Assembly (NCBI GenBank): GCA_017441005.1
Contig: JAFSAM010000044.1
Location: 31,049 to 95,048, forward strand
From: Clostridia bacterium
Lineage (GTDB): Bacteria; Bacillota; Clostridia; Oscillospirales; CAG-272
Length of the DNA: 64,000 nt
Direction of reading: 5' to 3'
Shown here: positions 441 to 16,372 of the stretch, piece after piece
Position numbering within the stretch: the stretch's first letter is position 1
Layout: each line of letters opens with the position of its first letter
Notes under the pieces: generated by a model
Seen by the model: the letters and a program-made list of their open reading frames with translations, nothing else
The model's database searches: none
Told to the model about the DNA's origin: nothing
Program-made: the position numbers and the translations under genes

Positions 441-1532
441 TTAAACCGTAAACTCAAAGTGTTCGAGATCAACACCGCCGCGGGCAATTGCAACTCGGTA
501 GTTGAACGTATAAGTACCCTTTTCAAGAGTAGAAAGATCAAGATCCTTGTTCATATCGTCAATTACAAGATCGTACTTGTTTGTGAAGTTGTACTGGAGA
601 GCTTTTCTCACTACCTTGCCATCCTTGTCCTTTACTGTTGCATAGGCATAGTCGAGAGGGAAGGTGGAGGTGATGGTACCCGTGAAGCCGTTTTTGATGG
701 TTTCGGGAGTGTTTATACCGTCATAAATGATGTATGCATCCTTAGCCTTTTCGCCGTTTGAATAGATCTCAAGCGTGATAGCCATAAAATGCTTTTCATA
801 AAGAGTGTTGAATGTGTAGTGACGGTTCACAAACCAGGTCGTGGGGATATCGACCGTTTTGTCCCAGGCGTTTGTCTGCTCAATTACGATAACTTCGGAT
901 TTTTCACCGTCGATCATACCGTATTCGTCGTAAACCACGATAGGCTCCTGGCTGACCATTCTTACGTGGCCGGATCCGGTCTTTTTGCAGAAGTAGATAA
1001 CGTCGCCGGGCTTTGTCATAGCATATGACTCAAAGATCTTTGTTTTGGGGTTATTGTCCCAAATATCGTAGGAGTCGTATCTGTCACCGAACTGCTCGTA
1101 GGGAATCTTGATATCGTTGGGGAACTTGAAAATACCGGGATACCACTTCTGAGGCTTTGTTCCGCCGACACCGCCGTTGGAAATAAGCTGCTGGAAGGCC
1201 CTTGCCATAGAGGAAGAGCAGTGGTTTCCGATTATGTCATCAAAATAGTGGGACTCAAAGGAGAACACGCCGTCTTTAACGAACTGCTCAAAAGCATCAA
1301 GACCGCATTTTGTGTCGGAGTAGGGCATACCGTAATATGTAACACCTTGCTTGTACTGAAGGCTTGCATTGAAGTCGTATGCCTTTTTCATACAAACGTT
1401 CATATCGACGTCAGGAGTCCACTGTATCTGGGACATCTTCATCATATAGTCGAGGACGATCTGTCTGTAATCGCCTTCGGGGGCTTTTATTGTAGCAACC
1501 TTACAATTGTTTTGAATTTTAATGTCTGTCAT
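441..1532 (-). CDS. Family A paralog A1, signal-less form. Putative Cys/His (papain-like) hydrolase of unknown function.
   Basis: Track ORF is 441..1562. I prefer ATG 1532 (MTDIKIQNNCKVATIKAPEGDYRQIVLDYMMKMSQIQWTP). AAAGGAG lies about 10 nt upstream, and GTG 1562 would put that SD inside the CDS. The N-terminus then aligns with the paralogs. Motifs: GNHCSSSM, SGHVRMV, IEQTNAW, C-terminal VAIARGGVDLEHFEFTV. Confidence 0.85.
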   Translation of the reverse strand: MTDIKIQNNCKVATIKAPEGDYRQIVLDYMMKMSQIQWTPDVDMNVCMKKAYDFNASLQYKQGVTYYGMPYSDTKCGLDAFEQFVKDGVFSFESHYFDDIIGNHCSSSMARAFQQLISNGGVGGTKPQKWYPGIFKFPNDIKIPYEQFGDRYDSYDIWDNNPKTKIFESYAMTKPGDVIYFCKKTGSGHVRMVSQEPIVVYDEYGMIDGEKSEVIVIEQTNAWDKTVDIPTTWFVNRHYTFNTLYEKHFMAITLEIYSNGEKAKDAYIIYDGINTPETIKNGFTGTITSTFPLDYAYATVKDKDGKVVRKALQYNFTNKYDLVIDDMNKDLDLSTLEKGTYTFNYRVAIARGGVDLEHFEFTV

Positions 1533-1607
1533 TTTTTTACACTCCTTTTTAGTAGTAATCACAACTCTGCCTATTATACAACAGAAATATTAAAAAGTAA
1601 ATATAAA

Positions 1608-2705
1608 TTATACTTCAAATTCAATTTTTTCAAAATCAACGCCGCCGCGTGCAATACCTGCACGGATAGTCAACGTGTATTTTCCTTTTTCGAGAGAGGG
1701 AAGATCAAGCTCATTTCCCATAGGAACGAGATCCATTTTGTATGTTCTCTGGAAATCGTATCTGTGAGAGCTTCTGACCAATTTATTATCCTTATCTCTT
1801 ACTGTCATACGTACATACGTAAGAGGGAAGGAGGAGATGATATCGCCGTTTATACCGTTCATTACAGTTTCAGCACTGTTTGTTCCGGTATAGGTTACGA
1901 ATGCATCCTTGGGTTTTTCGCCCGAGGTGAATATCGTAAAAGTGATGGGGCAGAAGAATCTTTCGTAAAGTGTGGCAAAGCTTCTCTTACGATTGACGTA
2001 CCAGGTGGTGTTTCTTCCGCGAGCGGTCTCTTGCGTATCAAACTGGTTTGTCTGCTCGATCGTGTAGATAAAGCTGTTGTCGGGGTCGATCTCGCCGTTT
2101 TCGAAGCGTGTGACCTCGGCGGGCTGACTGATCATACGGAGGTGACCTGTTCTCACCTTACTGAAGAAATAGAGCACGTCGCCCTTGTCGACAGATGCGT
2201 ATGCCTCCATGACTGTCTTTTTTGAATGGAGATCCCAGAGGTCGGAAACGTCAAATCTGCCAAAGTCCTTTGGGTACTTCAGATCGCCGCAGTACTTGAG
2301 CATAGTGCCTCTTTCGGGACAAGGAGCAATGCCTCCGTAATACGGAAAGTCGAGCAGCTGCTGATATGCAAGACCCATAGAGGAAGAGCAGTGGTTTCCT
2401 ATGATCTCTTCATAGTATTCGGAGTTGGGTACAAATTTTCCGTCCTCGAAGAACTGCTCGAATTCATCCTGGGAGCATTTGGTGTTTGCATAAGTCATAC
2501 CGTGATAGGTCTTGCCTTTTTCGTAAACAAGATCTACACCGAAATCGCCTGCATTTTTCCACTTGATATGGAAGGTTTCTTTCGGTGTCCACTCAAAGTC
2601 GGCCATTTTCATCATATAGTCCATAACTATCTGACGGTAATCGTCACCTACAGGCGGCTTGAATATAGCAACCTTGCAGTTCTCATTAAATATCATTTCG
2701 CACAT
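1608..2705 (-). CDS. Family A paralog A2, signal-less form
   Basis: 365-aa ORF with AGGAG upstream of ATG 2705. N-terminus MCEMIFNENCKVAIFKPPVGDDYRQIVMDYMMKMADFEWTP. Motifs: GNHCSSSM, RTGHLRMIS, IEQTNQF, C-terminal RAGIARGGVDFEKIEFEV. Confidence 0.88.
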   Translation of the reverse strand: MCEMIFNENCKVAIFKPPVGDDYRQIVMDYMMKMADFEWTPKETFHIKWKNAGDFGVDLVYEKGKTYHGMTYANTKCSQDEFEQFFEDGKFVPNSEYYEEIIGNHCSSSMGLAYQQLLDFPYYGGIAPCPERGTMLKYCGDLKYPKDFGRFDVSDLWDLHSKKTVMEAYASVDKGDVLYFFSKVRTGHLRMISQPAEVTRFENGEIDPDNSFIYTIEQTNQFDTQETARGRNTTWYVNRKRSFATLYERFFCPITFTIFTSGEKPKDAFVTYTGTNSAETVMNGINGDIISSFPLTYVRMTVRDKDNKLVRSSHRYDFQRTYKMDLVPMGNELDLPSLEKGKYTLTIRAGIARGGVDFEKIEFEV

Positions 2706-2734
2706 TTTTTGATATCTCCTTTTTTCAACCTATG

Positions 2735-3838
2735 TCAAACCGTAAACTCAAACTTTTCGAAATCGACGCCGCCTCTTGCGATGCCCGCACGGATAGTGAG
2801 TGTGTACGTGCCCTTTTCGAGGGAAGTGATGTCAAGCTCTTCGTTTAACTCTGATAAATCAATGTGATAGCATTTGGGAAGATCATATTTCATAGCACTT
2901 TTAACAAGCTTGCCGTTTGTGTCTCTGACCGTGATTCTTGCATAAGCAAGAGGGAAGGTGGAGGTTATTGTGCCGCTAATTCCGTTCATTACCGTAGAGG
3001 CATTATTTTCTCCGTGGTAGTAGACATAGGCATCCTTCGATTTTTCACCGGAGGTGAATATCGTAAGTGTTACAGGCTTGAAAAATCTTTTGTAAAGTGT
3101 CGCAAAACTACGTTTCCTGTTGACGAACCAGGTCGTTTTTCTGCCCTGAGCGGTATCCTGATCATCCCAGATGTTTGTCTGCTCGACCGTATAGATAAAG
3201 CTGTTATCTGGGTCAATGTGACCGTTTTCAAAACGGGTAACCTCAGCAGGCTTGCTTACAAGACGAAGGTGTCCCGAACGCTTTTTGCTCGAGAAATACA
3301 ATACGTCGCCCATATCAAGCTCGGCATAGGCCTCCATAACGGCATCCTTGGAGTTTGCGTTCCAAAGATCCTCGGAGTCATAGGTGTCGCCCCATTTCCC
3401 GGGGAGATTGAGATTTCCCGGGAATTTAAGCATCGTTCCTCGATTGGGGTTAGGCTGAATGCTTCCGAAGAAAGGGAAGTCGATAAGCTGCTGATAAGCC
3501 ATATCGATCGAGGACTGACAGTTGTTTCCGACACAGACCTCGTAGTATTCGGAGTTGTTTACAAACTCGCCGTCTTCAAAAAGCTGAAGGAACTCGTCAA
3601 AAGAGGCTTTTGTAAAACAATACGTAACACCGTGGTATTTCTTACCTTTTTCGTATGTGAGGTTAAGCCCCATATCGGTGCGGTTTGTTCTTAACTTTAT
3701 ATTGAAGGTTTCTTTTGGAGTCCACTCGAAATCAGCCATTTTCATCATATAGTCCATGACTACCTGACGGTAATTGTCCGACTCGGGGGCTTTGAAGGTT
3801 GCTACCTTACAGTTTTCCTGAAAAACCAATTCGCTCAT
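2735..3838 (-). CDS. Family A paralog A3, signal-less form
   Basis: Track ORF is 2735..3847 (MGFMSELVF...). ATG 3838 (MSELVFQENCKVATF) matches the A2/A4 N-termini exactly in length. Either start is possible. Motifs: GNNCQSSI (the His before the Cys is replaced by Asn), RSGHLRLVS, VEQTNIW, RAGIARGGVDFEKFEFTV. Confidence 0.85.
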   Translation of the reverse strand: MSELVFQENCKVATFKAPESDNYRQVVMDYMMKMADFEWTPKETFNIKLRTNRTDMGLNLTYEKGKKYHGVTYCFTKASFDEFLQLFEDGEFVNNSEYYEVCVGNNCQSSIDMAYQQLIDFPFFGSIQPNPNRGTMLKFPGNLNLPGKWGDTYDSEDLWNANSKDAVMEAYAELDMGDVLYFSSKKRSGHLRLVSKPAEVTRFENGHIDPDNSFIYTVEQTNIWDDQDTAQGRKTTWFVNRKRSFATLYKRFFKPVTLTIFTSGEKSKDAYVYYHGENNASTVMNGISGTITSTFPLAYARITVRDTNGKLVKSAMKYDLPKCYHIDLSELNEELDITSLEKGTYTLTIRAGIARGGVDFEKFEFTV

Positions 3839-3871
3839 AAATCCCATTCTCTTTCTTATTAAAAATCTTGT

Positions 3872-4972
3872 TTAAACGGTAAATTCGAATTTTTCGAAAT
3901 CGGCGCCGCCTCTTGCGATACCTGCACGGAGTGTAAGCGTGTAAGTACCTTTTTCAAGGGAAGAAAGGTCTAACTGTTCGTTGAGACTTGCAATGTCGAC
4001 GAAATAGTCCTTTGCGAGGTTGTAGGCGATTGCATGCTTTACGAAGTTTCCGTCCTTATCCTTGAGTGTAATACGAACGTAGGTGAGAGGGAAGGTTGAT
4101 GTGATAGTACCCGAAACACCATTTTTGATGGTTTCCGCATTGTTTATTCCCGAGTAGATGACGAATGCATCTTTAAGCTTTTCACCCGAGGTGTATGCTG
4201 TGAAAGTAACGGGCTTAAAGCGCTTTTCGTAAAGGTTTGCAAATGAATACTTGTGGTCGATGAACCATGTTGTATTTTTGCCCTGTGCAGCCTCGGTCTT
4301 GTCCCAGGCATTTGTCTGCTCAACCGTATAGATGTAGCTGTTTTCGGGGTCAATAAGACCATTGTCAAAACGAACGACCTCTGCGGGAAGGCTAACCATA
4401 CGGGCGTGCCCCGATTTATATTTATCACTGTAGTAGAGAATATCGCCTGTGTCGACGGAAGCGAATGCTTCCATGACGTCATTTTTGGAGTTGATCGCCC
4501 AAACATCGGCGGCATCGTAGCCGTTTCCGTATACTGTGGGTTGTTTTAAGTTTCCGCAAAGCTTGAGCATAGTTCCTCTTTGGGTGTTGGGCTTAACTGT
4601 ACCTGTGTAGGGGAAGTCGAAGCACTGCTGGAAAGCCATATCCATAGAAGCGGAGCAATGGTTACCGAAGCACTCTTCGTAATATTCGGAATTGGGTGTG
4701 AGCTCGCCGTTTTCAAGGAGCTGCTCAAAAAGGTCAAGCGTACCCTTGGTATCGGTATAGGTCATACCGTGGTATTTTACGCCCTTTTCGTATGTTAGAT
4801 CGACCTTGAATCGGGGAGTGCCCTTCCACTTGATATTGAAGGTCTCTTTGGGAGTCCATTCAACGTTTGCCATTTTCATCATATAATCTTTTACGATCTT
4901 GCGGTAATTGTCTCCCTCGGGAGCTTTAAATTTGGCAACCTTACAGTTGTCCATAAAAAACATTTCAGACAT
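3872..4972 (-). CDS. Family A paralog A4, signal-less form
   Basis: 366-aa ORF with AGGAG 9 nt upstream. N-terminus MSEMFFMDNCKVAKFKAPEGDNYRKIVKDYMMKMANVEWTP. Motifs: GNHCSASM, KSGHARMVS, VEQTNAW, RAGIARGGADFEKFEFTV. Confidence 0.88.
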   Translation of the reverse strand: MSEMFFMDNCKVAKFKAPEGDNYRKIVKDYMMKMANVEWTPKETFNIKWKGTPRFKVDLTYEKGVKYHGMTYTDTKGTLDLFEQLLENGELTPNSEYYEECFGNHCSASMDMAFQQCFDFPYTGTVKPNTQRGTMLKLCGNLKQPTVYGNGYDAADVWAINSKNDVMEAFASVDTGDILYYSDKYKSGHARMVSLPAEVVRFDNGLIDPENSYIYTVEQTNAWDKTEAAQGKNTTWFIDHKYSFANLYEKRFKPVTFTAYTSGEKLKDAFVIYSGINNAETIKNGVSGTITSTFPLTYVRITLKDKDGNFVKHAIAYNLAKDYFVDIASLNEQLDLSSLEKGTYTLTLRAGIARGGADFEKFEFTV

Positions 4973-4990: not shown

Positions 4991-6067
4991 TTATATTATA
5001 AATGTAAATTTTTCAAAATCGTAGCCGCCTCTTGCTATGCTTGCCCTGAGCTTAAGCTCGTATTTTCCCGCGGGAAGGTCGGAGAGATCAAGGGATGCAC
5101 ATTCTTTTTTGAGGTCAAATTCAAACGTTTCGCCAAGATTGCGAACGTGAACCTTTTTTACAATCTTGTTGTTTTCGTTTTTTATTGTAAGAAGGAGGTA
5201 ATTAAGAGGGTAGTTTGATTTGATCTTGCCGTTTATGCCCTTTCTTACTGTTTTGGCAGTGTTTTTTCCGTTATAGAATACGTATGCATCGGTAATTGGA
5301 TTATTATCGTGGAACGTATCTAACGTAACAGGCATAAATCCGGTTTTAAAAATGGTGGAAAACTTGCGTTTTTTGTCTATATACCAGGAAGAGACCTGCT
5401 CGTCGGTGAACCAGAGATTGGTATGCTCGACAACGTATATATAGCTGCTTTCGGGGTCAATCTTGCCGTTTATGTCTCTGACCGTCTCGACCTTGCTTAC
5501 CATTCTGACGTGACCTGAGCCGGGGATACATTTGAAAAGAATATCGCTTTTTTTCAGTGTGGCAAAGGCTTCGTAAACCGCCTCCTCGCCGTTCAGCTCA
5601 AACACCGTCGATGAATGCCATACGCCCTCTCCCGGATTTTTTAAATCACCTGCAAGTGAGAAAATTCCTTTTCTCTGTGAAGACGGTCTGAACGTGCCGT
5701 AGCCTACGGGAATGATCTGCTGATAGGCAAAGAACATGGACGACGAGCAGTGGTTTCCCACGATGTCCGTATAATAATAGGAATCGCAGGAAAACTCGCT
5801 GTTATCAACAAACTGCATAAACTCGTCGAGGTTTGCTTTTGTGTTGCCGTAGGGAATACCGTAATATTTTTTACCCGCCTTGTGCTCGAGCTCAAGCTTA
5901 TATTCTCTTGGAACATCGGGCGAATGGGTCAGAAGGAAATCCTCCTTCGGAGTCCATTCGACGTTTGCCATTTTCATATAGTAATCAAATACAATATCTC
6001 TTTTGTTGCCCATGGGCGCTTTAAATTCAACGACTTTTGTGTAATCGTGAACTATCGGTTCGCACAT
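4991..6067 (-). CDS. Family A paralog A5, signal-less form
   Basis: 358-aa ORF with AAGGAG upstream. N-terminus MCEPIVHDYTKVVEFKAPMGNKRDIVFDYYMKMANVEWTP. Motifs: GNHCSSSM, GSGHVRMVS, VEHTNLW, RASIARGGYDFEKFTFII. Its sequence is closest to A6 and to the lipoprotein A7. Confidence 0.88.
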   Translation of the reverse strand: MCEPIVHDYTKVVEFKAPMGNKRDIVFDYYMKMANVEWTPKEDFLLTHSPDVPREYKLELEHKAGKKYYGIPYGNTKANLDEFMQFVDNSEFSCDSYYYTDIVGNHCSSSMFFAYQQIIPVGYGTFRPSSQRKGIFSLAGDLKNPGEGVWHSSTVFELNGEEAVYEAFATLKKSDILFKCIPGSGHVRMVSKVETVRDINGKIDPESSYIYVVEHTNLWFTDEQVSSWYIDKKRKFSTIFKTGFMPVTLDTFHDNNPITDAYVFYNGKNTAKTVRKGINGKIKSNYPLNYLLLTIKNENNKIVKKVHVRNLGETFEFDLKKECASLDLSDLPAGKYELKLRASIARGGYDFEKFTFII

Positions 6068-6097
6068 AATACAAACTCCTTCTCAGATCAAACGATA

Positions 6098-7177
6098 TTA
6101 TACGGTAAAGTTGAAGTGCTCGAACTCGCAAACGCCTCTTGCAATACCTGCACGGAGGGTATATTCGTAGTTACCCTTGGGGAGATCGAAGAGTTGTTTG
6201 TCCTTCGATTCTTCTGCAAGGTCAACTTTATATACTTCTCCGAGTTTTCTTACGTTCATTCTCTTGACTATCTTACCGTTTTCGTCTTTGATCGTAACCA
6301 TAACGTAGTTAAGAGGGAAGGTTGCTTCAACAATGCCGGAAATACCGTTTTTAACAGTTTCGGCGGTGTTGTTGCCGTCATAGAAAATGAACGCGTCTGC
6401 AATGGGGGTGTTATCGTGGAAGGTGTCGACTGTGATAGGCATAAACAAGGTTCTGAAGAGTCTTGCAAAGCTGTATCTCTTGTCGATATGCCATGTGGAG
6501 TTTTTATCCTCGGTATACCAAGCACTGCAGTTTTCGACGGTTATAACGTAGCTGTTTTCGGGATCGATCTTGCCGTTTTCATCTCTCTTTACGTCGACGT
6601 CACTAACCATTCTTACGTGGCCGGAACCGTGCTTTGCGAAGAAAAGAATATCAGCGTACTCGAGTGTTGCGTATGCTTCGTAGATAGCTTCTTCACCGTT
6701 CAAGTCAAAGAGATCTTTGGAAACCCATGTCCAAGGACCGGGACTTGTAAGATTTTTGGGAAGGGAGAAGAGACCTTTTCTTGCTTCCGAGGGACGGAGC
6801 GTGCCCCAGCCTACGGGAATAAGCTGCTGGTATGCAAGAAGCATTGATGACGAGCAGTGGTTGCCTACGATCTCGGTGTAATAATACGAATCGCAATGGA
6901 AAACACCGTTTTCGTCTATATGGTCAGCAAACTGATCGAAGTCAGCCATTGTGTTTGCATATACAACGCCGTAGTATGTTTTTCCACCGATGTAATCGAG
7001 CTTAACACCGTAGTCTTTTTCTGTACCGGGAGCCCAGGTGTTGCAAAAATCATGGGGGGCTTTCCACGGAATTGTCGCCATTTTCATATAGTAATCAAAT
7101 ACGATCTTTCTTTTGCTTCCCACGGGGGCGGGGAACTTTGCGACCTTAAGGTCATTACGGAAAGTAATATCGCTCAT
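6098..7177 (-). CDS. Family A paralog A6, signal-less form
   Basis: 359-aa ORF with GGAGGA upstream. N-terminus MSDITFRNDLKVAKFPAPVGSKRKIVFDYYMKMATIPWKAP. Motifs: GNHCSSSM, GSGHVRMVS, VENCSAW (third motif degenerate), RAGIARGVCEFEHFNFTV. Confidence 0.88.
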   Translation of the reverse strand: MSDITFRNDLKVAKFPAPVGSKRKIVFDYYMKMATIPWKAPHDFCNTWAPGTEKDYGVKLDYIGGKTYYGVVYANTMADFDQFADHIDENGVFHCDSYYYTEIVGNHCSSSMLLAYQQLIPVGWGTLRPSEARKGLFSLPKNLTSPGPWTWVSKDLFDLNGEEAIYEAYATLEYADILFFAKHGSGHVRMVSDVDVKRDENGKIDPENSYVITVENCSAWYTEDKNSTWHIDKRYSFARLFRTLFMPITVDTFHDNTPIADAFIFYDGNNTAETVKNGISGIVEATFPLNYVMVTIKDENGKIVKRMNVRKLGEVYKVDLAEESKDKQLFDLPKGNYEYTLRAGIARGVCEFEHFNFTV

Positions 7178-7210: not shown

Positions 7211-8494
7211 TTATTTAACAGTGAATTCAAAGCTTTCGATCGTAGCAGCACCTCTTGCAATGCCTGCCTTGAGGGTGTACTTATATGTACCTGCAGGAAG
7301 CTCGTTGAGCTTTAAGCCGAAGGTTTCTCTGAAGACGTCGATCTCATAGCACTCGGTGAGGTTATTCTTTATAGCCTTCTTAACAACGTTACCATTGGCA
7401 TCTTCAATTAAAATACTCATATAGTTGATGGGGAAGTTGGAGCTGATCTGACCTGTGAGCTTGCTTGTGATCTGCTCGGGAGTGTTGCTGCCTGTAAACC
7501 AGATATATGCATCCCATACCTTATCGTTATCGTCAAAGTATGTATCGAGGGTGATAGGCATAAACTCTGTGCTCCAAAGCTTATCGAAGGTGTATTTTTT
7601 GTCAACCCACCAGGTTGTGTTTTTGTTATTGTCAAACCATGCGTTGGTATTTTCGATTACATATACGTAGCTTCTGCTGGGATTGAGCTTGCCTGCAACA
7701 GTTTTAGATACCTCGACCTTGGTTACGAAACGGGTGTGACCTGAGCCGGGAATACACTTGAAGAGGATATCGCCCTTATCAAGTGTGGTGTATGCTTCGT
7801 ATACTGCCGCCTGACCGTTAAGAGTAAATACATCCTTGGAGTACCATGTGCCGTCGCCGGGGTTTTCGAGATCGCCGGCGAGCTTAAAGATACCCTTTCT
7901 TGCTGTGGAAGGACGGAGTGTGCCGTAGCCTACGGGAATGATCTGCTGATATGCAAGGAACATACAGGAGGAGCAATGGTTTCCTACGATATCCTGATAG
8001 TAGTAGGAGTCACAGTACAGCTTGCCGTCCTTGATGTGGTCCATAAATTCATCATAGTTTGCCTTTGTTTCGCCATAGCAAATGCCGTAATAGGTCTTAC
8101 CGGCTTTGTATTCGAGGTTAACGCTGTAGTCGCGCTCAACGTCGGGGCGGTGGGTGGTTACAAAGTCAACTGAAGGAGTCCATTCGACCGTAGCCATCTT
8201 CATCATATAGTCGTATGTAGCCTGACGCTTGTCAACCGTAGGTGCGGGGAAGCACTGCTCAAAAGTAGCATTTGCGGGCTTTTGTCTGTTTTCAAAGGGG
8301 CTTGTTTTCATGGGCTCAGCCGATGTTTCTGATTCGGTTTCTGCCACTGTTTCATCAGTTGTTTCTTCAACGGGCTGTGTTTCTTCGGTCTCAGTGGTTT
8401 CCTTTGTTTCACTTTCGCCTCCGGAACATGCAACGAGAGCAAACGAAAGAACAAAAACGAGAGCAAGAATGCTAAAAAGCTTGAAATTTTTCAT
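7211..8494 (-). CDS. Family A paralog A7, lipoprotein form
   Basis: 427-aa ORF with AAGGAG upstream. Signal peptide MKNFKLFSILALVFVLSFALVAC with lipobox LVAC, then a Glu/Thr-rich linker (ESETKETTETEETQPVEETTDETVAETESETSAEP). Motifs: YDYMMKMATVEWTP, GNHCSSCM, GSGHTRFVT, IENTNAW, KAGIARGAATIESFEFTVK. Confidence 0.9.
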   Translation of the reverse strand: MKNFKLFSILALVFVLSFALVACSGGESETKETTETEETQPVEETTDETVAETESETSAEPMKTSPFENRQKPANATFEQCFPAPTVDKRQATYDYMMKMATVEWTPSVDFVTTHRPDVERDYSVNLEYKAGKTYYGICYGETKANYDEFMDHIKDGKLYCDSYYYQDIVGNHCSSCMFLAYQQIIPVGYGTLRPSTARKGIFKLAGDLENPGDGTWYSKDVFTLNGQAAVYEAYTTLDKGDILFKCIPGSGHTRFVTKVEVSKTVAGKLNPSRSYVYVIENTNAWFDNNKNTTWWVDKKYTFDKLWSTEFMPITLDTYFDDNDKVWDAYIWFTGSNTPEQITSKLTGQISSNFPINYMSILIEDANGNVVKKAIKNNLTECYEIDVFRETFGLKLNELPAGTYKYTLKAGIARGAATIESFEFTVK

Positions 8495-8528: not shown

Positions 8529-9803
8529 TTATTTTGTAAAGTTAATGGTTGCGACGTCAGCACCACCGCGCGCAATACCTGCTCTGATGGTCAACGTGTA
8601 GTTGCCGGGAGCAAAGTCAGATGTCTTGAGATAGAATTTTCTCATATCAAAGGTGTAGTTTGTTTTCATACCTGCTTTGGTGTCTCTGTGTACGATGTTT
8701 CCGTTTTCGTCCGTGATGGTGATCATGACGTAGTTAAGGGGGAAGTTTGAAGAAACAGTACCGGGAAGAATGCCGTTTTTGATGTTGTTTTCGGTGGGAT
8801 TACCGTCAAAAGCAAGATAAGCATCCTCGTAAGTGGGGTTATCTTCGTGGAAGATTTCAAGAGTTACAGGCATAAACAGAGTGTCATAGAGCTCTGTGAA
8901 GGTGTATTTTCTGTCAACAAACCAAGTGGAAACCTGTTCGCTTGAGTCCCATGCATTTGTCGATTCAACACAGTAAACGTAGCTTCTTGTGGGCATAAGC
9001 TTACCGGAAGCGCTCTTGGATAATTCAACCTTGCGCACCATACGCGTATGTCCGACACCCGGGATGCTCTTGTAGAGAATGTCGCCTTCTTCAAGTGTGG
9101 CAAAAGCCGCGTATACAGCATCCTGTCCGTTAGCTGCAAAAACCTCGTTTGAGTACCAGTTATCGCCCAGACCCTCGGGAATCTTGAGATCGCCGGCAAG
9201 CTTCAAGAGACCGATTCGTGAAGAAATGGGCTTGAGCACGGAGATGGGCATATCGACGATCTGCTGATATGCAAGTGTCATTGTGGATGAGCAGTTGTTT
9301 CCTATGATCTTTTCGTAGGAGTAGTTATCCATTTTGAGCTCGTTCTTCTCGTTAAGGAAAACTGAGAACAACTCTAAACTGCAGTGAGTATCGCCATAGG
9401 TAGTGCCGGAGTAAGTCTTATCCTTATAGAATTTAATAGCCATATTGGGGTCAAAGGAGGCAGGGCCTTCCCAACCGATCGTGAAGTCCTCGGAGGGAGT
9501 CCACTTAATAGTAGCCATCTTCATCATATAGTCCATAACGATTTCACGAGGATTTCCTTCGGGAGCCTCAAATACCTGGAAGAACTCGTATTGGCTTGTA
9601 TCCTCCGGCCACTCATCCTCCTCTTTAGGAGCTTCTGTTTTTTCAGGCTCCGGAGCAGATGTAGCGGGGGCTTCTGTTCTTACGGAATCGCCGAGCGGAT
9701 CGATGGTTCCTTCAGGTTCTTTTGTGCTTTCATTGCTTCCGCAAGCGGTTACAAAAACAAGCAGCGCGGCAAGCAACAGAATAAATAAAAGATTGTTTTT
9801 CAT
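8529..9803 (-). CDS. Family A paralog A8, lipoprotein form
   Basis: 424-aa ORF. Signal peptide MKNNLLFILLLAALLVFVTAC (lipobox), with a linker containing DPLGDSVRTEAP. Motifs: GNNCSSTM, GVGHTRMVR, VESTNAW, RAGIARGGADVATINFTK. The SD is weak (AAAGG). Confidence 0.88.
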   Translation of the reverse strand: MKNNLLFILLLAALLVFVTACGSNESTKEPEGTIDPLGDSVRTEAPATSAPEPEKTEAPKEEDEWPEDTSQYEFFQVFEAPEGNPREIVMDYMMKMATIKWTPSEDFTIGWEGPASFDPNMAIKFYKDKTYSGTTYGDTHCSLELFSVFLNEKNELKMDNYSYEKIIGNNCSSTMTLAYQQIVDMPISVLKPISSRIGLLKLAGDLKIPEGLGDNWYSNEVFAANGQDAVYAAFATLEEGDILYKSIPGVGHTRMVRKVELSKSASGKLMPTRSYVYCVESTNAWDSSEQVSTWFVDRKYTFTELYDTLFMPVTLEIFHEDNPTYEDAYLAFDGNPTENNIKNGILPGTVSSNFPLNYVMITITDENGNIVHRDTKAGMKTNYTFDMRKFYLKTSDFAPGNYTLTIRAGIARGGADVATINFTK

Positions 9804-9957: not shown

Positions 9958-9972
9958 TGAAAAAAACAAAAA

Positions 9973-11262
9973 TCATTCAATAGTAAAGTCAAAGTTTTCG
10001 ATTTCCCAACCGCCTCTTGCAATTGCCGCTTTAAGACTGAAGTTGTACTTACCTGCAGGGAGCTTGTCTGCGCTAAGGGTGTAGGTCATATCACGAAGGG
10101 TGATCTTGTAGTTGTTCTGAAGATCGTATTTCAATACTTCCTTTACAATATTGCCTTCGGAGTCGGTAATGGTGGCTCTGACGTAGTTGATGGGGAAGGT
10201 GGTTTCGATCGTGCCTTTAAGCATTTTTTTCAAAGATGTTTCGTCATTTCTGTCTGTGACAAGTATGTAAGCATCGTAGACTACAGGGGTTTCTTCGTGG
10301 AAAATATCAAGAGTGAATGGTGTGAAGAGGGTAGATGCCAATTTTTCGAAGGAGTATTTTCTGTCGATAAACCAAGTCGATTCTTGCTTATTATCTGCCC
10401 AAGCACTTGTCTGCTCGATGCAGTAAACGAAGCTTCTGGTGGGTATGATCTTTCCGGCTGCCGTTTTTGCTACCTCGACCTTGCTAACCATACGGGTGTG
10501 ACCCGATGGGGCTACCATTTTGTAGAGGATGTCGCCTCTGCCGAGCGTTGCGTAAGCATCATATATCTTATCTACTCCGTTGAGATCAAAAACAGCTTTG
10601 GAGTCATAGGAGAGATTACCCTCTTCATCGGGAGGAGGGAGTGTAAGTCCTTCTGCAAGGCTAATCAATCCCTGACGGTGATTGTTTTCTTTTAGACCGC
10701 CGTAATAGGGAAGATCAATGATCTGCTGATATGCAAGCCCCATGGATGCAGAACAGTGGTTGCCGATTATTTCCTCGTAAATATCACTGTTCGGTGTAAA
10801 CGTGCCGTCAATTATAAAATCCTCGAAGGTATAGAGGGCGCACTTTGTTTGTGCGTAGGGAACACCGTAATAGGTTTTTCCTTCAATATATTTAAGTTGA
10901 AGTCCCGTCGAGCCGTTCTCCTTGTGGGTAGTCCATGTCTTTCCGGCAACCCATTTTACTTGAGACATTGTATACATGTGGTTGTATACGATCTCGCGAA
11001 GATCGCCTGTCGGAGCATCGAATTTCTTATATGCCGCATACTTTGAAAGATCGGGAGCGTACTTTTCGGGATCTATGGTGTTGACCTTAGGCGGTTCCGA
11101 TTCGGTTGGAGCTTCAGTTCTGACAGAATCCCCCAAAGGATCTACAGTCTCTGCAGTCGATTCGGGCGTGTCATTATCTGAATTCTTATCGGATGATCCG
11201 CATCCGACAAAAACAAACAGACAGAGAGTAAGGCAAAGTAAAAAAGTCAAAAGTTTTTTCAT
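9973..11262 (-). CDS. Family A paralog A9, lipoprotein form
   Basis: 429-aa ORF with AAGGAG upstream. Signal peptide MKKLLTFLLCLTLCLFVFVGC (lipobox), with a linker containing DPLGDSVRTEAP. Motifs: GNHCSASM, PSGHTRMVS, IEQTSAW, KAAIARGGWEIENFDFTIE. Confidence 0.9.
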   Translation of the reverse strand: MKKLLTFLLCLTLCLFVFVGCGSSDKNSDNDTPESTAETVDPLGDSVRTEAPTESEPPKVNTIDPEKYAPDLSKYAAYKKFDAPTGDLREIVYNHMYTMSQVKWVAGKTWTTHKENGSTGLQLKYIEGKTYYGVPYAQTKCALYTFEDFIIDGTFTPNSDIYEEIIGNHCSASMGLAYQQIIDLPYYGGLKENNHRQGLISLAEGLTLPPPDEEGNLSYDSKAVFDLNGVDKIYDAYATLGRGDILYKMVAPSGHTRMVSKVEVAKTAAGKIIPTRSFVYCIEQTSAWADNKQESTWFIDRKYSFEKLASTLFTPFTLDIFHEETPVVYDAYILVTDRNDETSLKKMLKGTIETTFPINYVRATITDSEGNIVKEVLKYDLQNNYKITLRDMTYTLSADKLPAGKYNFSLKAAIARGGWEIENFDFTIE

Positions 11263-11407: not shown

Positions 11408-12706
11408 TTATTCTACTGTAAACTCAATTGTCTCGATGTCCCAAGTGCCTCTTGCAATACCTGCTTTGAGGTTGAAGGTATAAGTTCCTGTGGGAAGCTT
11501 ATCAGCATTGAGCTGGAATGTCATATCTCTGATGTTGACCTTGTAGTTCTTGGTAAAGTCGTACTTGAATGCTTCGCTTACGATCTTGCCGTCAGCATCG
11601 GTAATAGTTGCTCTTACATAGTTGAGCGGGAAGGTAGACTCGATTGTACCTGCCAACATCTTCTTGATGGTTTCGGGAGTGTTCTTGCCCTTCATCATAA
11701 TGTATGCATCGTAGATCTTGGGGTTTTCTTCGTGGAAGATGCAAAGAGTGAAGGGGGTGAAGTTTGTGCTGTTAAGTGTTTCAAAAGAGTACTTTCTGTC
11801 GATGAACCAAGTGGACTCTTTCTTGTTGTCAGCCCAAGCGTTTGTCTGCTCAAGGCAGTATACATAGCTTCTGCTGGGAACGATCTTACCTGCAACGGTC
11901 TTGTAAACTTCAACCTTGCTTACCATACGGGTGTGACCGGAGCCGTCGATCATTTTATAGAGAATGTCGCCCTTATCGAGAGAAGCATAAGCTTCGTAAA
12001 GCTTATCAACGCCGTTGTGTGCGGTAACAGTCTCGGAGATCCAGTCGTCGGGGTTGTTTTCTGTTCTTGAAGGAGGAATTTCGAGGGGGGCAGCAAGCTT
12101 GATCAAGCCACGGCGTGCGCTATTTTCTTTAAGACCGCCGGAATAGGGTAAGTCGATGATCTGCTGATAAGCAAGACCCATGGAAGAAGAGCAGTGGTTT
12201 CCGATGAGCTCTTCATAGTATTCGCTGTTGGGCGTGAAGGTGCCGTCAATTACAAAGTTTTCGAAAACGGAAAGGCCGCATTTTGTGTTGGAGTAGGGAA
12301 TACCGTAGTAGGTCTTACCTTCTTCGTATGTGATGTTTACACCGAAGTCGCCCTGTACCTTCCAGTGAGTGTTCCAGCCCTTTGTTGCTTTCCATTCGAT
12401 CTGGGACATAGCGTACATATAATCGTAAACTATGTCACGGGGATTACCCTTGGGAGCTTCAAATATTTTTACGTAATCGTATTCCGCAAGTTTTTCAGCT
12501 GTAGGAGTATACTTGCTGTAATCGATATCTGTTTCTACAGGCGCGGGGGGCTCGGTAGCGGGAGCTTCTGTTCTGATAACGCCGCCGCCCAGAGGGTCTT
12601 TCGTCTGTTCGGGAGTTGTTTCTTTTGAACCTCCGTCACTGCTTCCGCAGGATGCCAAAACGACAATGAGCAGAAGGCTCAATGTGAGTAAAAAAACTTT
12701 TTTCAT
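11408..12706 (-). CDS. Family A paralog A10, lipoprotein form
   Basis: 432-aa ORF. Signal peptide MKKVFLLTLSLLLIVVLASC (lipobox), with a linker containing DPLGGGVIRTEAP. Motifs: GNHCSSSM, GSGHTRMVS, LEQTNAW, KAGIARGTWDIETIEFTVE. Confidence 0.9.
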   Translation of the reverse strand: MKKVFLLTLSLLLIVVLASCGSSDGGSKETTPEQTKDPLGGGVIRTEAPATEPPAPVETDIDYSKYTPTAEKLAEYDYVKIFEAPKGNPRDIVYDYMYAMSQIEWKATKGWNTHWKVQGDFGVNITYEEGKTYYGIPYSNTKCGLSVFENFVIDGTFTPNSEYYEELIGNHCSSSMGLAYQQIIDLPYSGGLKENSARRGLIKLAAPLEIPPSRTENNPDDWISETVTAHNGVDKLYEAYASLDKGDILYKMIDGSGHTRMVSKVEVYKTVAGKIVPSRSYVYCLEQTNAWADNKKESTWFIDRKYSFETLNSTNFTPFTLCIFHEENPKIYDAYIMMKGKNTPETIKKMLAGTIESTFPLNYVRATITDADGKIVSEAFKYDFTKNYKVNIRDMTFQLNADKLPTGTYTFNLKAGIARGTWDIETIEFTVE

Positions 12707-12730
12707 TTTTTAAGATATCCTTTCGTTTAA

Positions 12731-14014
12731 TCAGTCAATGGTAAATTTAACGGTTTCAATATCAACACCGCCGCGGGCAATACCTGCACGGCAATTGAAC
12801 GTATATTCGCCGGGCTCAAGCTTGTCGAGACCGAGCTTGTAGGTGAAGTTTCTGAGATTGATCTTGAAGGATTTAGTGAGATAATACTCAAGATGTTCTC
12901 CGACGATCTTGCCGTCCTTATCTGTTATAGTGAGTCTTGCGTAAGCGAGAGGGAAGTTGGATTCGATAGTGCCGTTGAGCATCTTCTTGATGGTTTCGGG
13001 AGTGTTCTTACCCTTCATCGCGATGTAAGCATCCTCGATAACGGGGTTTTCTTCATGATAGATCTTAAGTGTAACGGGCATAAAGAAAGTATCATAAAGC
13101 TGAGAGAATGTGTACTTTCTGTCTATGAACCATGTGGATTCCTTCTTGCTGTCAGCCCAAGCGTTTGTCTGTTCAAGACAGTAAACGTAGCTTCTTGCGG
13201 GAATGATCTTACCGGCAACGGATCTGCTAACTTCTACCTTGCTTACCATACGTGTGTGGCCGGAGCCGTCGATGCTCTTGTAGAGAATATCGCCTTTGTC
13301 AAGCTTTGTGTATGCTTCAAAAACAGCTTCCTGACCGTTGTGCGAGAAAACCGTGGCAGATATCCAGTCATCGGGGTTGTTGGGGTTTCTTGAAGGGGGA
13401 ACTTCAAGAGGCTCGGGGAACATGAGATATTCTGTTCTTGTAGTAACGGGTTTAAGGCTTCCCGAGTAAGTCAAGGGAATTATCTGCTGGAACGACATAA
13501 CCATAGAAGAAGAGCAGTGGTTACCTACTATTTCTTCATAGTAAGGACTGGGGGTGGGGGTAAATCTCTTGTTTGCGGGCAAAAACAATTCAAACTCCTC
13601 AAGGGTTGCGTTTGTTCTTGCGTAAGGAACACCGTAGTAGGTCTTACCTTTTTCGTAGGAAAGATTAACGCCGAAGTCGCCTTCACCTTTCCAGGTTGTT
13701 GTCCAGGATTCAGCTGCAGTCCACTTGATCTGTGACATTGCATACATGTAGTCATAAACTATGTCACGGGGATTGCCTTCGGGAGCCTTGAAATCAAAGA
13801 AGTAGTCATAATCTTCTCTTTTTACAGGTTCAGCTTCAGGCTTAGTGGCAGCGGGAGTTTCCGCTTCGGTTTTGGGACCTTCTGTTCTGACGGAGGGACC
13901 CAAGGCATTAACTGTCTCTGTTGCTTCGACTTTGTCTTCTTCGGATGAGCCGCAAGCAACCAAAACGGATGCCGCAACGATCAGACTGAGGACAAGAAAA
14001 ATAAGTTTTTTCAT
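12731..14014 (-). CDS. Family A paralog A11, lipoprotein form
   Basis: Track ORF is 12731..14077. I prefer ATG 14014 (MKKLIFLVLSLIVAASVLVAC, lipobox) because GAAAGGA lies about 8 nt upstream. The 21-aa extension (MTSKFNYRKTKNFYKPRKEKT) would overlap the A12 stop. Linker contains ALGPSVRTEGP. Motifs: GNHCSSSM, GSGHTRMVS, LEQTNAW, RAGIARGGVDIETVKFTID. Confidence 0.88.
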   Translation of the reverse strand: MKKLIFLVLSLIVAASVLVACGSSEEDKVEATETVNALGPSVRTEGPKTEAETPAATKPEAEPVKREDYDYFFDFKAPEGNPRDIVYDYMYAMSQIKWTAAESWTTTWKGEGDFGVNLSYEKGKTYYGVPYARTNATLEEFELFLPANKRFTPTPSPYYEEIVGNHCSSSMVMSFQQIIPLTYSGSLKPVTTRTEYLMFPEPLEVPPSRNPNNPDDWISATVFSHNGQEAVFEAYTKLDKGDILYKSIDGSGHTRMVSKVEVSRSVAGKIIPARSYVYCLEQTNAWADSKKESTWFIDRKYTFSQLYDTFFMPVTLKIYHEENPVIEDAYIAMKGKNTPETIKKMLNGTIESNFPLAYARLTITDKDGKIVGEHLEYYLTKSFKINLRNFTYKLGLDKLEPGEYTFNCRAGIARGGVDIETVKFTID

Positions 14015-14060
14015 GGTTTTTTCCTTTCGTGGTTTATAAAAATTTTTTGTTTTTCGGTAA

Positions 14061-15128
14061 TTAAATTTTGAAGTCAAAAGCTTCGATCTCAGTACCGCCC
14101 CTACCGATTCCGGCGCGCAGAGTATAGGTGTAATCGCCTTCGGGCAGGGTGTCCGTTTTTAATTCGGCAAAGAATTCGGATAGATCGATTCTGTACTGTT
14201 TTGCAAACTTGTATTTATAGATCTCGCCGACTGTGTTTCCGTTGCTGTCGGTAACTGTCGCTCTGACGTATGCAAGAGGAAAGTTTGATGTGACTTTTCC
14301 GTTGATACCCGATTTGATCGAATCGCCGTTATTTTTTCCGTCAAATGCTATGTAAGCATCCTTGAGTTGTTCTTTTGTGTGGAATATGTCGAGTGTCAGC
14401 GGCATAAACTTCGTGTTCCAAAGCTTTTGGAAGGAGTATGGGCGGTCGATCCACCATGTCGTCTTTCTGTCTGTTCTTGTTTTGTCGAACTCGTTTGTTT
14501 GTTCAATGCAGTATACGATGCTGTTTTCGGGATCGATCCTGCCGTTTTCGTCTCTGACGACCTTTATACTTCTTACCATACGTGCATGTCCCGTGCCCGG
14601 CTTGATCTTGTTGATAATGTCGCCCTTGTCGGCTGAAGCATAAGCTTCAAAGAGTGCCTCCTGTCCGTTCAGGTCGAATATGTCCTGAGTAAAATATTCG
14701 TCTCCGTCGGGCTTTTTTAAGCCGTTTACAAAAGAGAGGATCCCGTTTCTTGCGGTACCCGGCTTCAGCCTTCCCTCGAAGGGAAAATCGATAAGCTGCT
14801 GATATGCAAGTCCGATCGATGAGGAGCAATGGTTTCCGACCATTTCTTCGTAGTAGTAATTCGGGGATGTGAACGTGTCGCCGTCTTTTGCAAACATATT
14901 GAACTGATCGAGCGATGCTCTTGCCTGCGAGTAGGGAACGCCGTAAACGGTCTCACCTTTTTTGAATGAAAGATCGACCTTAAAATCGCCTTTCTTTTTC
15001 CAGGTTATTTCAAAATCCTCGCCTGCGATCCACCTTGTGTTTGCCATAGCCATCATATAATCCATGACTATCGTGCGGTAGTCGCCCTCGGGGGCTTTAA
15101 ATTCTTTATAGAAAGTATATTCACTCAT
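14061..15128 (-). CDS. Family A paralog A12, signal-less form
   Basis: 355-aa ORF with GAGGAA upstream, starting only 11 nt after the A13 stop. N-terminus MSEYTFYKEFKAPEGDYRTIVMDYMMAMANTRWIAGEDF. Motifs: GNHCSSSI, GTGHARMVR, IEQTNEF, RAGIGRGGTEIEAFDFKI. Closest to the lipoprotein A13. Confidence 0.88.
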   Translation of the reverse strand: MSEYTFYKEFKAPEGDYRTIVMDYMMAMANTRWIAGEDFEITWKKKGDFKVDLSFKKGETVYGVPYSQARASLDQFNMFAKDGDTFTSPNYYYEEMVGNHCSSSIGLAYQQLIDFPFEGRLKPGTARNGILSFVNGLKKPDGDEYFTQDIFDLNGQEALFEAYASADKGDIINKIKPGTGHARMVRSIKVVRDENGRIDPENSIVYCIEQTNEFDKTRTDRKTTWWIDRPYSFQKLWNTKFMPLTLDIFHTKEQLKDAYIAFDGKNNGDSIKSGINGKVTSNFPLAYVRATVTDSNGNTVGEIYKYKFAKQYRIDLSEFFAELKTDTLPEGDYTYTLRAGIGRGGTEIEAFDFKI

Positions 15129-15139
15129 ATTTGTTTTCC

Positions 15140-16372
15140 TCAGCCTATGGTGAATTGGAAGCTTTCTATCTCGGTACCGCCTCTTGCGATTCCCGCGTGC
15201 AGACTGTAGGTGTATGTGCCCGGCTCGAGCTTGCTTATGTTAAGTGAAGAATAGTCTGTTCTTAGGTTTACCTTGTAAGATTTATCAAACTTTCGGCGGT
15301 AGATCTCACCGACTATATTACCGTCAGAGTCAGTGATGGTTGCTCTTACATAAGAAATGGGGAAGTTTGACGTGACAGTGCCGTTTATCGTCTTCAAAAT
15401 GGACTCGGGAGTGTTTTTATCATCGAATGCGATGTAGGCGTTTTCAAGCTGTTCGCCGTTGTGGAATATTTCAAGTGTAAGTGGAATGAACTTTGTGTCG
15501 AGCAATTCTTGGAAGGTGTATGAATGCTCGATCCACCAGGTTGTGTTTCTGTCTTTGGTTGTCTTATCGAATGCATTTGTCTGCTCAATGGTGTAAACCA
15601 AAGATCTTGCAGGAATAATTTTGCCTGCAGCCGTTTTGTATATTTCAACGTGGCTGACCATACGTGAGTGACCGGAGGTCTTGACGAATTTGCCGAGGAT
15701 ATCCCCCTTACCCATTTTTGCGTATGCTTCGAATATTTTTTCTTTTCCGTTAAGGTTGATAACATCCTCGGAGTACCAGTCCTTTGTAGTTTCGCCTGCA
15801 GGCTGTTCAAGACCGTCTATAAGCTTGATGACTCCGCGTCTTTCGCCTACGGGCTTAAGGCTGCCTGCATAGGGGAAGTCGATGAGCTGCTGATATGCAA
15901 GTCCCATCGAGGATGAGCAATGATTTCCGATAATCTCTTCGTAGTAGTATGTGTCAGAGGTGAACGTGCCGCCTTCTGCAACGAACTGAGAAAACTGCTC
16001 GAGACTTGCTCTTTGCTCGGAATAGGGAAGCCCGTAGTAGGTTTCTCCTTTTTTGAAGTCGAGGTTTACTTTAAAGTCGCCTTCGTCCTTCCAGGCGATC
16101 GAGAAATCCTCGCCGGCGATCCATTTGTAATTTGCCATAGCCAACATATAGTTGTAAGCTATCTCGCGGTAATCTCCCTTTGGGGCTTCGAATATTTTAT
16201 AGAATTCGTAGTCAAGCTCCGGGTGACCTTCTGTTGTTTCAAGTGCGGTGGATTCTTCTGTTGAAGGCTCTTCTGTTTCGGGAGCATCGGGCTTGTTGTC
16301 CGAGCTTCCGCATGATGAAAGAATGAATGCTGCAAACAATGCAACAAGCGCAAGGATGAAAAGTTTTTTCAT
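15140..16372 (-). CDS. Family A paralog A13, lipoprotein form. First gene of the array in the direction of transcription.
   Basis: 410-aa ORF with ACGGAGGAA upstream. Signal peptide MKKLFILALVALFAAFILSSC (lipobox), then a Glu/Thr/Pro linker. Motifs: GNHCSSSM, TSGHSRMVS, IEQTNAF, HAGIARGGTEIESFQFTIG. Confidence 0.9.
   Translation of the reverse strand: MKKLFILALVALFAAFILSSCGSSDNKPDAPETEEPSTEESTALETTEGHPELDYEFYKIFEAPKGDYREIAYNYMLAMANYKWIAGEDFSIAWKDEGDFKVNLDFKKGETYYGLPYSEQRASLEQFSQFVAEGGTFTSDTYYYEEIIGNHCSSSMGLAYQQLIDFPYAGSLKPVGERRGVIKLIDGLEQPAGETTKDWYSEDVINLNGKEKIFEAYAKMGKGDILGKFVKTSGHSRMVSHVEIYKTAAGKIIPARSLVYTIEQTNAFDKTTKDRNTTWWIEHSYTFQELLDTKFIPLTLEIFHNGEQLENAYIAFDDKNTPESILKTINGTVTSNFPISYVRATITDSDGNIVGEIYRRKFDKSYKVNLRTDYSSLNISKLEPGTYTYSLHAGIARGGTEIESFQFTIG

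Follow-up and report, generated by a model that had tools for sequence, protein, structure and literature searches.

A tandem array of divergent, putative CHAP/NlpC-P60-type cysteine hydrolases with an Ig-like domain in a Clostridia bacterium

A 64,000-nucleotide stretch of contig JAFSAM010000044.1 from a Clostridia bacterium of the CAG-272 lineage (hereafter, the window) carries 13 complete paralogous open reading frames (ORFs; A1-A13) on its minus strand, at positions 441-16372. The ORFs encode 355-448 amino acids (aa), lie head to tail and are separated by spacers of 11-169 bp (Table 1). We propose that they belong to an array of 17-18 genes for divergent CHAP/NlpC-P60 cysteine hydrolases with an immunoglobulin (Ig)-like domain, that the encoded proteins are isoenzymes, and that a peptidoglycan-type substrate is the likeliest. 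As a whole, this reading is probable, though not secure. Its core, the assignment as papain-like enzymes of the CHAP/NlpC-P60 type with a Cys-His-Glu triad, is very likely.

The 13 paralogs align end to end with pairwise identities of 35-68%, a mean column identity of 50%, and 35 invariant columns. The original prediction, made from the DNA letters, had described a Cys, a His and a third polar motif in these proteins and had suggested a papain fold of the NlpC/P60, CHAP, or C39-like kind. The sequence contexts that it quoted for the Cys (GNHCSSSM, GNNCQSSI, and others) and for the His (SGHVRMV, TGHLRMI, and others) are identical to the translations in 13 of 13 cases each. A GD[IV][IL] strand had been placed about 10 aa before the His. 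Such a strand is indeed present about 11 residues upstream, but its Gly is not invariant; the motif reads [G/S/A]-D-[IV]-[IL], and only the Asp is kept throughout. The third motif, given as EQTN, EHTN, ENTN, ESTN, or ENCS, is conserved with an invariant Glu, although the variant EQTS of A9 was missing from that list. None of the 13 paralogs deviates at the Cys, the His, the Arg two residues past the His, or the Glu of the third motif.

The same residues are retained in distant relatives. An alignment of 101 homologs, 19-46% identical to A12, showed a mean column identity of 15%, with 19 of 355 positions conserved at ≥90%. In A12 numbering, Asp170 occurs in all 101 sequences, and both Cys101 and His181 in 100 (the remaining Cys position is a Ser). 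Position 209 is acidic in 100 of the 101 (78 Glu, 22 Asp). The GD motif lies 11 residues before the His, and the residue preceding Asp170 is Gly in 73% and Ala in 24% of the set. Furthermore, Arg18, Trp33, Gly63, Tyr61/Tyr66, Ser203, and Gln210 are near-invariant. As the triad is kept at this level of divergence, the Cys-His-Glu pattern exceeds what chance or mere paralogy would produce. The sole sequence with a Cys-to-Ser exchange at the catalytic position is P0111 (GMNSST).

A word-indexed search returned 72 relatives, all without Pfam domains, and each one with a source name was labelled 'hypothetical protein'; no characterised member emerged among the homologs. An exhaustive hidden Markov model (HMM) search of 1.84 billion cluster representatives yielded 1,580 clusters at E<=1e-3 and 605 at E<=1e-30, counted at 50% identity. 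As the search profile contained signal-peptide and Ig columns, 605 is the safer estimate of the family size.

Structural models of A12 were generated with AlphaFold2 on a 78-sequence alignment, for the full-length protein and for residues 1-252. The latter were modelled alone because the Ig-like domain dominated the Foldseek search with the whole protein. The predicted local distance difference test (pLDDT) score was 96.3 for the full length and 95.3 for residues 1-252. In the model, helix 101-109 starts with Cys101, strand 171-176 carries the GD motif, and Gly180-His181 open strand 181-189. A hairpin follows, then strand 204-210, which ends in Glu209-Gln210, and then two more strands. AlphaFold thus places the Cys, GD, His, and Glu on canonical papain-like secondary-structure elements, and the modelled arrangement corresponds to the canonical, non-permuted order (Cys, His, polar) of papain-like, NlpC/P60, and CHAP enzymes. 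A GD motif on strand beta1 is characteristic of, and common to, NlpC/P60, CHAP, and related amidases (PMC10318531).

Residues 255-355 of A12 form an Ig/FN3-like beta-sandwich in the AlphaFold model. This domain matched Lap adhesin repeats (6xi3, E=1.6e-4), CopC, FN3, and DUF3244 in Foldseek searches, and a profile search of the PDB also gave 6xi3. Weak matches to FlgD_ig were found in 18 of the 101 family members.

Profile comparisons connected the catalytic domain with CHAP. Among the window proteins, A1 gave the best score against Pfam CHAP (15.5 bits, E=0.024), over residues 163-205 of its 373-aa translation and with the GD-GH segment in register; it was the only window member for which the Pfam scan reported a CHAP match. 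The homolog P0177 is an intragenic duplication that consists of two family catalytic domains only (residues 37-262 and 267-493). Its second domain scored 28.5 bits against CHAP (cut-off 26 bits; E=2.3e-6) over the GD/GH/DQ segment and additionally matched Amidase_6 (E=4.7e-4). P0177 was the only family member scanned with Pfam that passed the CHAP cut-off via the family domain. The CHAP signals of P0102 and P0168 were rejected as family-domain matches, since they originate from a separate canonical CHAP domain at the C-terminus. Similarly, an HMM from 46 CHAP proteins picked up only these separately fused domains.

A CHAP profile built from 46 proteins carrying PF05257 was aligned with the 101-sequence family profile using hhalign. 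The comparison gave E=4.6e-4 with the catalytic motifs in register: GD, His, and Glu were aligned, and the family hairpin was handled as an insertion. With permissive extension, the family Cys also paired with the CHAP Cys. Among 61 controls, the reversed alignment gave 0.07, the best of 30 column shuffles 0.053, and the best of 30 block shuffles 0.0075.

When the catalytic domain was compared with predicted viral structures (BFVD) by Foldseek, a single significant structural match was obtained, namely gp26 of crAss001 (E=6.1e-5, probability 1.00, TM 0.48, 278 columns). GenBank annotates this protein with the note 'phage tail/CHAP domain', and its CHAP label rests on this depositor's note. Next in the BFVD list came a C51 protein and a CHAP protein (E about 0.34). 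The non-significant list obtained from the PDB was headed mostly by papain-fold peptidases, namely the P60 domain 3i86, falcipain-2/3, AvrRpt2 (C70), PCAT1 (C39), and SERA5. No confident non-hydrolase fold appeared in the profile or Foldseek searches. The proposal of a papain-fold Cys-His-polar hydrolase is therefore supported at the superfamily level by the model, P0177, hhalign, and Foldseek. We regard the link to known papain-fold families as moderate, yet consistent over independent lines.

Several results weigh against the reading given at the outset. No window protein passed any cut-off in the Pfam (CHAP gathering cut-off 26 bits), NCBIfam, and PHROG scans; NCBIfam matched no catalytic-domain family, and the PHROG matches included nothing of known function. 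The hhalign probability for the family against CHAP was just 33%. Foldseek of the catalytic domain against the PDB gave no significant match to a solved structure (best E=0.26), and PDB sequence-profile searches with three alignments matched the Ig-like domain only (Lap adhesin repeats, FlgD, CopC). As for crAss001 gp26, a Pfam scan of this protein found no CHAP domain, and hhalign of the family against it found nothing. Moreover, seven of the 13 complete copies lack an export signal, which is odd for wall hydrolases. The genomic context of distant members revealed no consistently conserved neighbour, transporter, or wall-synthesis gene, and since these neighbours vary, the context does not settle the substrate. 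Finally, dockerin-bearing homologs and an AraC-type regulator (see below) agree no less well with nutrient or plant-fibre substrates than with peptidoglycan.

Because the window proteins miss the Pfam and NCBIfam cut-offs and solved structures give no significant match, the unannotated family would appear to be a new family-level branch of the CHAP/NlpC-P60 cluster, outside Pfam CHAP in the strict sense. Its hallmarks are an N-terminal extension of about 95 residues with invariant residues of its own, a hairpin insert between the His and the Glu, and a fixed C-terminal Ig-like domain.

CHAP domains (PF05257; MEROPS C51) are peptidoglycan amidases or endopeptidases, as exemplified by the CHAP domain of phage K LysK with Cys54-His117-Glu134-Asn136. 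The family shares with them the succession of a Cys at a helix N-terminus, a GD strand, a G-H at a strand start, and E-Q-(x)-N on the next strand, and its motif IEQTN resembles the CHAP motif ILEQN. In contrast to CHAP, the window proteins reach at most 15.5 bits against the cut-off of 26, the N-terminal extension carries invariant Arg, Trp, and Tyr residues, the segment from the Cys to the GD is longer (~70 aa), the strands of the His and the Glu are separated by a hairpin of about 15 residues, and a dedicated Ig-like domain is present at the C-terminus. As both the family domain and canonical CHAP occur within one protein (P0102, P0168), the two are not interchangeable.

With NlpC/P60 enzymes (PF00877; MEROPS C40), the family has in common the Cys-His-polar triad, the GD strand, a conserved upstream Tyr, and the occurrence of exported and cytosolic members in one organism; its best, non-significant PDB fold match is the P60 domain 3i86. 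In B. subtilis, LytE, LytF, and CwlO are extracellular NlpC/P60 proteins, whereas YkfC is a cytosolic enzyme of muropeptide recycling. Unlike NlpC/P60, the family gives no sequence-level match, lacks the wall-binding modules SH3b and LysM, and has a CHAP-like Glu/Asp in an EQ motif as third residue, where NlpC/P60 has His. We know of no tandem expansion to 17-18 copies reported for NlpC/P60.

Ruminococcus flavefaciens RflaF_05439 comprises two tandem NlpC/P60-like modules and an X-dockerin (PDB 4EYZ); in the crystal, the catalytic Cys of its module carried an acetyl-like adduct, and protease activity was not detected (PMC3573020). Like the present family, it is a module of about 260 residues from rumen Clostridia that is unrecognisable from sequence, with Cys109/His215/Gln230 and an upstream Tyr. 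It is tandem-duplicated and dockerin-linked, and both traits recur among homologs of the present family, with up to four catalytic domains per protein. The R. flavefaciens strain 17 homolog has a Cys-to-Ser copy, which parallels P0111. The two differ in the Cys-His spacing (106 in RflaF_05439, 80 in the family) and the His-polar spacing (15 and 28, respectively). Additionally, RflaF_05439 has Gln instead of Glu as third residue, a helical rather than a mixed N-terminal domain, and no Ig-like domain. No chain of this type was among the results of the three PDB profile searches (E<=10) or the top 50 Foldseek matches. At the level of these comparisons, the family is not detectably the RflaF_05439 module. 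The crAss001 gp26 protein, a 'hyaluronidase' of a Bacteroides phage and the sole significant structural match of the catalytic domain, is an 850-aa phage tail-associated protein for which no sequence or profile similarity to the family was detected. A tblastn search with the catalytic domain against 50,697 phage records gave no match.

The array extends beyond the window. A family HMM scan of the window detected, apart from A1-A13, only a partial 14th copy (A0) at 1-390. This copy is complete as a 410-aa gene on L005, an identical public contig from ruminant gastrointestinal metagenomes. Beyond the window start, L005 carries four family members that are more divergent (410, 400, 238, and 397 aa; L005:12316-16986), which brings the array to 17 genes in this genome. 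The triad is intact in all four members beyond the window. An identical A2 protein is present on ENA and Logan contigs. In a sister strain (L001), 18 members were found. The extra one, a 414-aa lipoprotein paralog at L001:15083-16327, lies between the orthologs of A10 and A9, is 62% identical to A10, and has an intact triad, indicating strain-level copy-number variation. In related species represented by metagenome-assembled genomes (MAGs), one array has at least 13 copies and another has 10, and a distant fecal MAG has three copies. The distal trio of the array (a lipoprotein, a short cytosolic protein without Ig-like domain, and a lipoprotein) is syntenic in L005, L009, L010, and L016. Its short 238-aa member is 76-86% conserved, compared to 52-68% for its trio neighbours. 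As it is the best conserved of the trio, it looks like the ancestral core.

Lipoprotein signal peptides (lipobox pattern [LVIFA]-[ASTVG]-[GAS]-C) were recognised in seven of the 14 window genes (A0, A7-A11, and A13), followed by acidic Thr/Glu/Pro linkers of 30-65 residues. The other seven (A1-A6 and A12) lack a signal peptide. Mis-called starts were considered for these copies and rejected, as their stop-to-stop frames leave no room for a signal peptide; they allow two to nine extra residues, and 37 in the case of A12, which, however, overlap A13. The signal-less copies are thus predicted to be cytosolic, and the rest to be surface lipoproteins. The paralogs fall into the clusters {A1; A2-4}, {A5-7}, {A8}, {A9-11}, and {A12-13}. 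This grouping shows at least three losses or gains of the export signal.

The ratio of non-synonymous to synonymous substitution rates (dN/dS) between the window and L001 was 0.03-0.13 for all eight comparable orthologs, signal-less and lipoprotein alike. In comparisons between species, the order of the genes was preserved, with dN/dS from 0.01 to 0.12. The most conserved ortholog between species is A1 (95.6% aa identity to L009, dN/dS 0.012, though dS is saturated). The low dN/dS and the stable order indicate that the array genes are stable and individually constrained, and not pseudogenes, silent cassettes, or diversifying antigens. Together, the age of the paralogs as judged from their identities, purifying selection, and ribosome-binding sites of their own point to sub-functionalised isoenzymes rather than to redundant or decaying copies.

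Besides gene arrays, the family has also expanded by forming multi-catalytic polypeptides. P0073, P0074, P0083, P0089, and others contain two to four units of a catalytic and an Ig domain per polypeptide. Type I dockerins were found on the homologs P0077, P0080, P0138, P0159, and P0178, one of which also carries a BspA-type leucine-rich repeat (LRR) and another BNR repeats; one dockerin-bearing homolog is in tandem with a further family member. With these dockerins, the family forms part of cellulosome-type assemblies in certain rumen Clostridia. A canonical CHAP domain lies C-terminal to the family domain and seven Ig repeats in P0102, P0168, and a tandem neighbour. An AraC-type regulator is encoded directly upstream of two distant members.

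From these data, a mechanism can be outlined in A12 numbering. The N-terminal domain of about 250 residues would be catalytic, with the Ig-like beta-sandwich of about 100 residues behind it. The invariant Cys101 thiolate at the helix N-terminus would be activated by the invariant His181 on the adjacent strand, which Glu/Asp209 on the next strand would orient. The Cys would then attack an amide (or ester) carbonyl, and the resulting thioester acyl-enzyme would be hydrolysed by water. The N-terminal extension and the variable segments 112-160 and 211-223 may form the substrate groove; the GD Asp and the near-invariant Arg18, Trp33, and Tyr61/Tyr66 of the extension probably shape this groove or the oxyanion hole. 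The surface lipoproteins would be tethered to the membrane on long acidic linkers, with the other half of the enzymes in the cytosol. As a three-gene core is conserved in distant relatives, the same bond chemistry may be carried out outside and inside the cell.

Peptide or amide bonds of the peptidoglycan type are our tentative candidate for the substrate, either in wall remodelling or in the scavenging of muropeptides of diverse chemotypes. They are favoured because of the CHAP fusions, their envelope-stress neighbours, what is known of the chemistry of the cluster, and the precedent of extracellular and cytosolic NlpC/P60 enzymes in one organism. A serious rival is that enzymes of the same fold and triad act as esterases, amidases, or proteases on substrates other than peptidoglycan, be it dietary or plant-cell-wall material or proteins, whether of the host or not. 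Products released at the surface would be processed to completion by the cytosolic copies, as in a polysaccharide-utilisation locus but for acyl bonds. We rate this as unlikely and nevertheless take it seriously because of the type I dockerin homologs, some with LRR or BNR and hence cellulosome-borne, the AraC-type regulator upstream of two distant members, the number of paralogs, and the analogy to RflaF_05439, which showed an acetyl-like Cys adduct and no protease activity (PMC3573020). The ruminant-gut Clostridia as hosts and an AXE1/S9-like esterase gene near the array fit as well. However, no carbohydrate-binding or CAZy module and no transporter was found in or beside the arrays, the canonical CHAP domains fused to some homologs indicate a cell-wall role, and the characterised close relatives in the CHAP/NlpC-P60 cluster all process peptidoglycan-linked peptides (PMC10318531).

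Papain-like folds with the same Cys-His-polar triad also include acyltransferases and transglutaminases (PMC10318531), and a separate Transglut_core protein is encoded near the array. The proteins might therefore transfer acyl groups instead of hydrolysing bonds, cross-linking or acylating envelope components in the manner of transglutaminases, LRAT, or N-acetyltransferases (NAT). This is improbable, as the sequence and profile signal is specific to CHAP and Amidase_6, the GD motif is typical of the hydrolase cluster, and NAT, LRAT, and transglutaminase are absent from the top fold matches. Even less probable is that the proteins are not enzymes at all. They could instead be surface lipoproteins or adhesins subject to antigenic or phase variation, the signal-less copies serving as silent cassettes, or form a toxin-immunity set whose cytosolic members neutralise the exported ones. 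In favour of such a role, the array is a long tandem series of lipoprotein paralogs, its Ig-like domains are similar to adhesin repeats, exported copies are mixed with non-exported ones, and strains differ in copy number. Diversifying or cassette-type evolution would nevertheless be the opposite of what was observed, namely strong purifying selection and a gene order that is stable between species. Furthermore, the triad is invariant in exported and cytosolic copies and across hundreds of homologs, each copy has its own start codon and Shine-Dalgarno site, and the cytosolic copies are full length and not small binding proteins. For the signal-less copies, antigenic-variation cassettes and toxin-immunity pairs were rejected in view of the Shine-Dalgarno sites, the invariant triad, and dN/dS values of 0.03-0.13.

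Going further than the reading as peptidoglycan-directed hydrolases, the array could represent a new type of catabolic locus, an 'acyl-bond utilisation' battery of 17 sub-functionalised CHAP-like hydrolases at the surface and in the cytosol. This is a speculative extension that we consider doubtful. If true, an uncultured ruminant-gut Clostridium would harvest chemically diverse stem peptides and cross-bridges of peptidoglycan from the necromass of other bacteria, or diverse plant or dietary amide and ester conjugates. The dockerin-bearing relatives would act likewise on cellulosomes, every paralog would cleave its own kind of bond, and the cytosolic Ig-less member would be the ancestral recycling enzyme.

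The coordinates of the array genes and associated features are summarized in Table 1. A Shine-Dalgarno site is located 6-10 nt upstream of the ATG in every array gene. As these sites and the genes called on identical public contigs agree, the true starts of A1 and A11 are probably at 1532 (363 aa) and 14014 (427 aa), respectively. In the leader upstream of A13, a search against Rfam recognised no RNA element, nor was there any match in the whole window. A promoter and terminator scan of the array found promoter-like sites at a level not above that of shuffled sequence. The plus strand at 459-16264 also has many ORFs of 80-365 aa (for example 1221-2225 and 5750-6847); these run antisense to the array, overlap real genes over their whole length, and are almost certainly spurious.

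Table 1. Positions of the array genes and associated features (window coordinates unless a contig is named; catalytic residues as predicted).
Feature	Position	Strand	Product	Triad, motif Asp	Remarks
A0	1-390	-	N-terminal 130 aa of 14th member, lipoprotein (MKKFLSLLLVLMLAFAVLASC..., LASC)		Runs off the window start; family HMM E=3.4e-17; start codon and Shine-Dalgarno site
A1	441-1532	-	363 aa, no signal peptide	C105/H189/E218, D177	Listed ORF reaches 1562
A2	1608-2705	-	365 aa, no signal peptide	C106/H188/E217, D176	
A3	2735-3847	-	370 aa, no signal peptide	C110/H193/E222, D181	GNNCQSSI variant
A4	3872-4972	-	366 aa, no signal peptide	C106/H189/E218, D177	dN/dS 0.044 vs L009
A5	4991-6067	-	358 aa, no signal peptide	C107/H186/E214, D175	SD replaces GD; EHTN
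A6	6098-7177	-	359 aa, no signal peptide	C108/H187/E215, D176	AD replaces GD; ENCS; dN/dS 0.030 vs L001
A7	7211-8494	-	427 aa, lipoprotein (LVAC, Cys23)	C174/H253/E281, D242	Acidic Thr/Glu-rich linker; dN/dS 0.071 vs L001
A8	8529-9803	-	424 aa, lipoprotein (VTAC, Cys21)	C171/H252/E280, D241	
A9	9973-11262	-	429 aa, lipoprotein (FVGC, Cys21)	C170/H255/E283, D244	EQTS
A10	11408-12706	-	432 aa, lipoprotein (LASC, Cys20)	C172/H258/E286, D247	
A11	12731-14014	-	427 aa, lipoprotein (LVAC, Cys21)	C167/H253/E281, D242	Listed ORF starts at TTG 14077
A12	14061-15128	-	355 aa, no signal peptide	C101 (codon 14826-14828)/H181 (14586-14588)/E209 (14502-14504), D170	Protein modelled
A12 domains	residues 1-252; ~255-355		Catalytic; Ig-like		AlphaFold models; dN/dS 0.092 vs L001
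A13	15140-16372	-	410 aa, lipoprotein (LSSC, Cys21)	C152/H235/E263, D224	First array gene; dN/dS 0.041 vs L001
AT-rich leader	16373-16666	-			Upstream of A13, the first array gene; presumed promoter region
Tandem CHAP fusions	L022:8001-17095		Two tandem proteins of ~1,430-1,455 aa: family domain, seven Ig, CHAP		Adjoin an HtrA-like protease and a two-component system

Other genes of the window lie outside the array. An alpha/beta-hydrolase with AXE1 (acetyl xylan esterase), Peptidase_S9, and DLH signatures is encoded near it at 18335-19471 (plus strand), adjoining PAP2 and PNP_UDP_1 genes and groES-groEL. At 24365-25363 (minus strand), about 8 kb from the array, a papain-fold transglutaminase-like protein (Pfam Transglut_core, E=3e-8) is encoded, which is unrelated to the family in sequence. 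A second, unrelated tandem array occupies 27979-32692 on the minus strand and consists of four paralogs of about 370 aa (27979-29151, 29165-30292, 30449-31558, and 31580-32692). They have motifs such as YKKYRFSLDDNIWFLQNL, CLHEQYFYPEF, and FMDELFEFNTH in common, and neither Pfam nor NCBIfam gave a significant match. This array is followed by a multi-pass membrane protein at 32799-33887.

For protein-family curators and rumen microbiologists, the analysis equips a sizeable part of the protein dark matter with a predicted fold, a catalytic triad, and a chemistry that can be tested. What is new is the unannotated family and its organisation; the superfamily itself is well known, and the family is no surprise in kind. 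Unusual for this superfamily are the 17-18 individually conserved tandem isoenzymes and the repeated switching between lipoprotein and cytosolic forms, as well as relatives fused into multi-catalytic polypeptides, to dockerins, and to canonical CHAP domains. Should the array be merely another set of autolysins, it would provide a useful new family definition and nothing more. If, on the other hand, the enzymes prove to act on plant-fibre conjugates or on cell-wall peptides from other bacteria, they would bear on rumen nutrient cycling and competition, and could supply new lytic or debranching enzymes.

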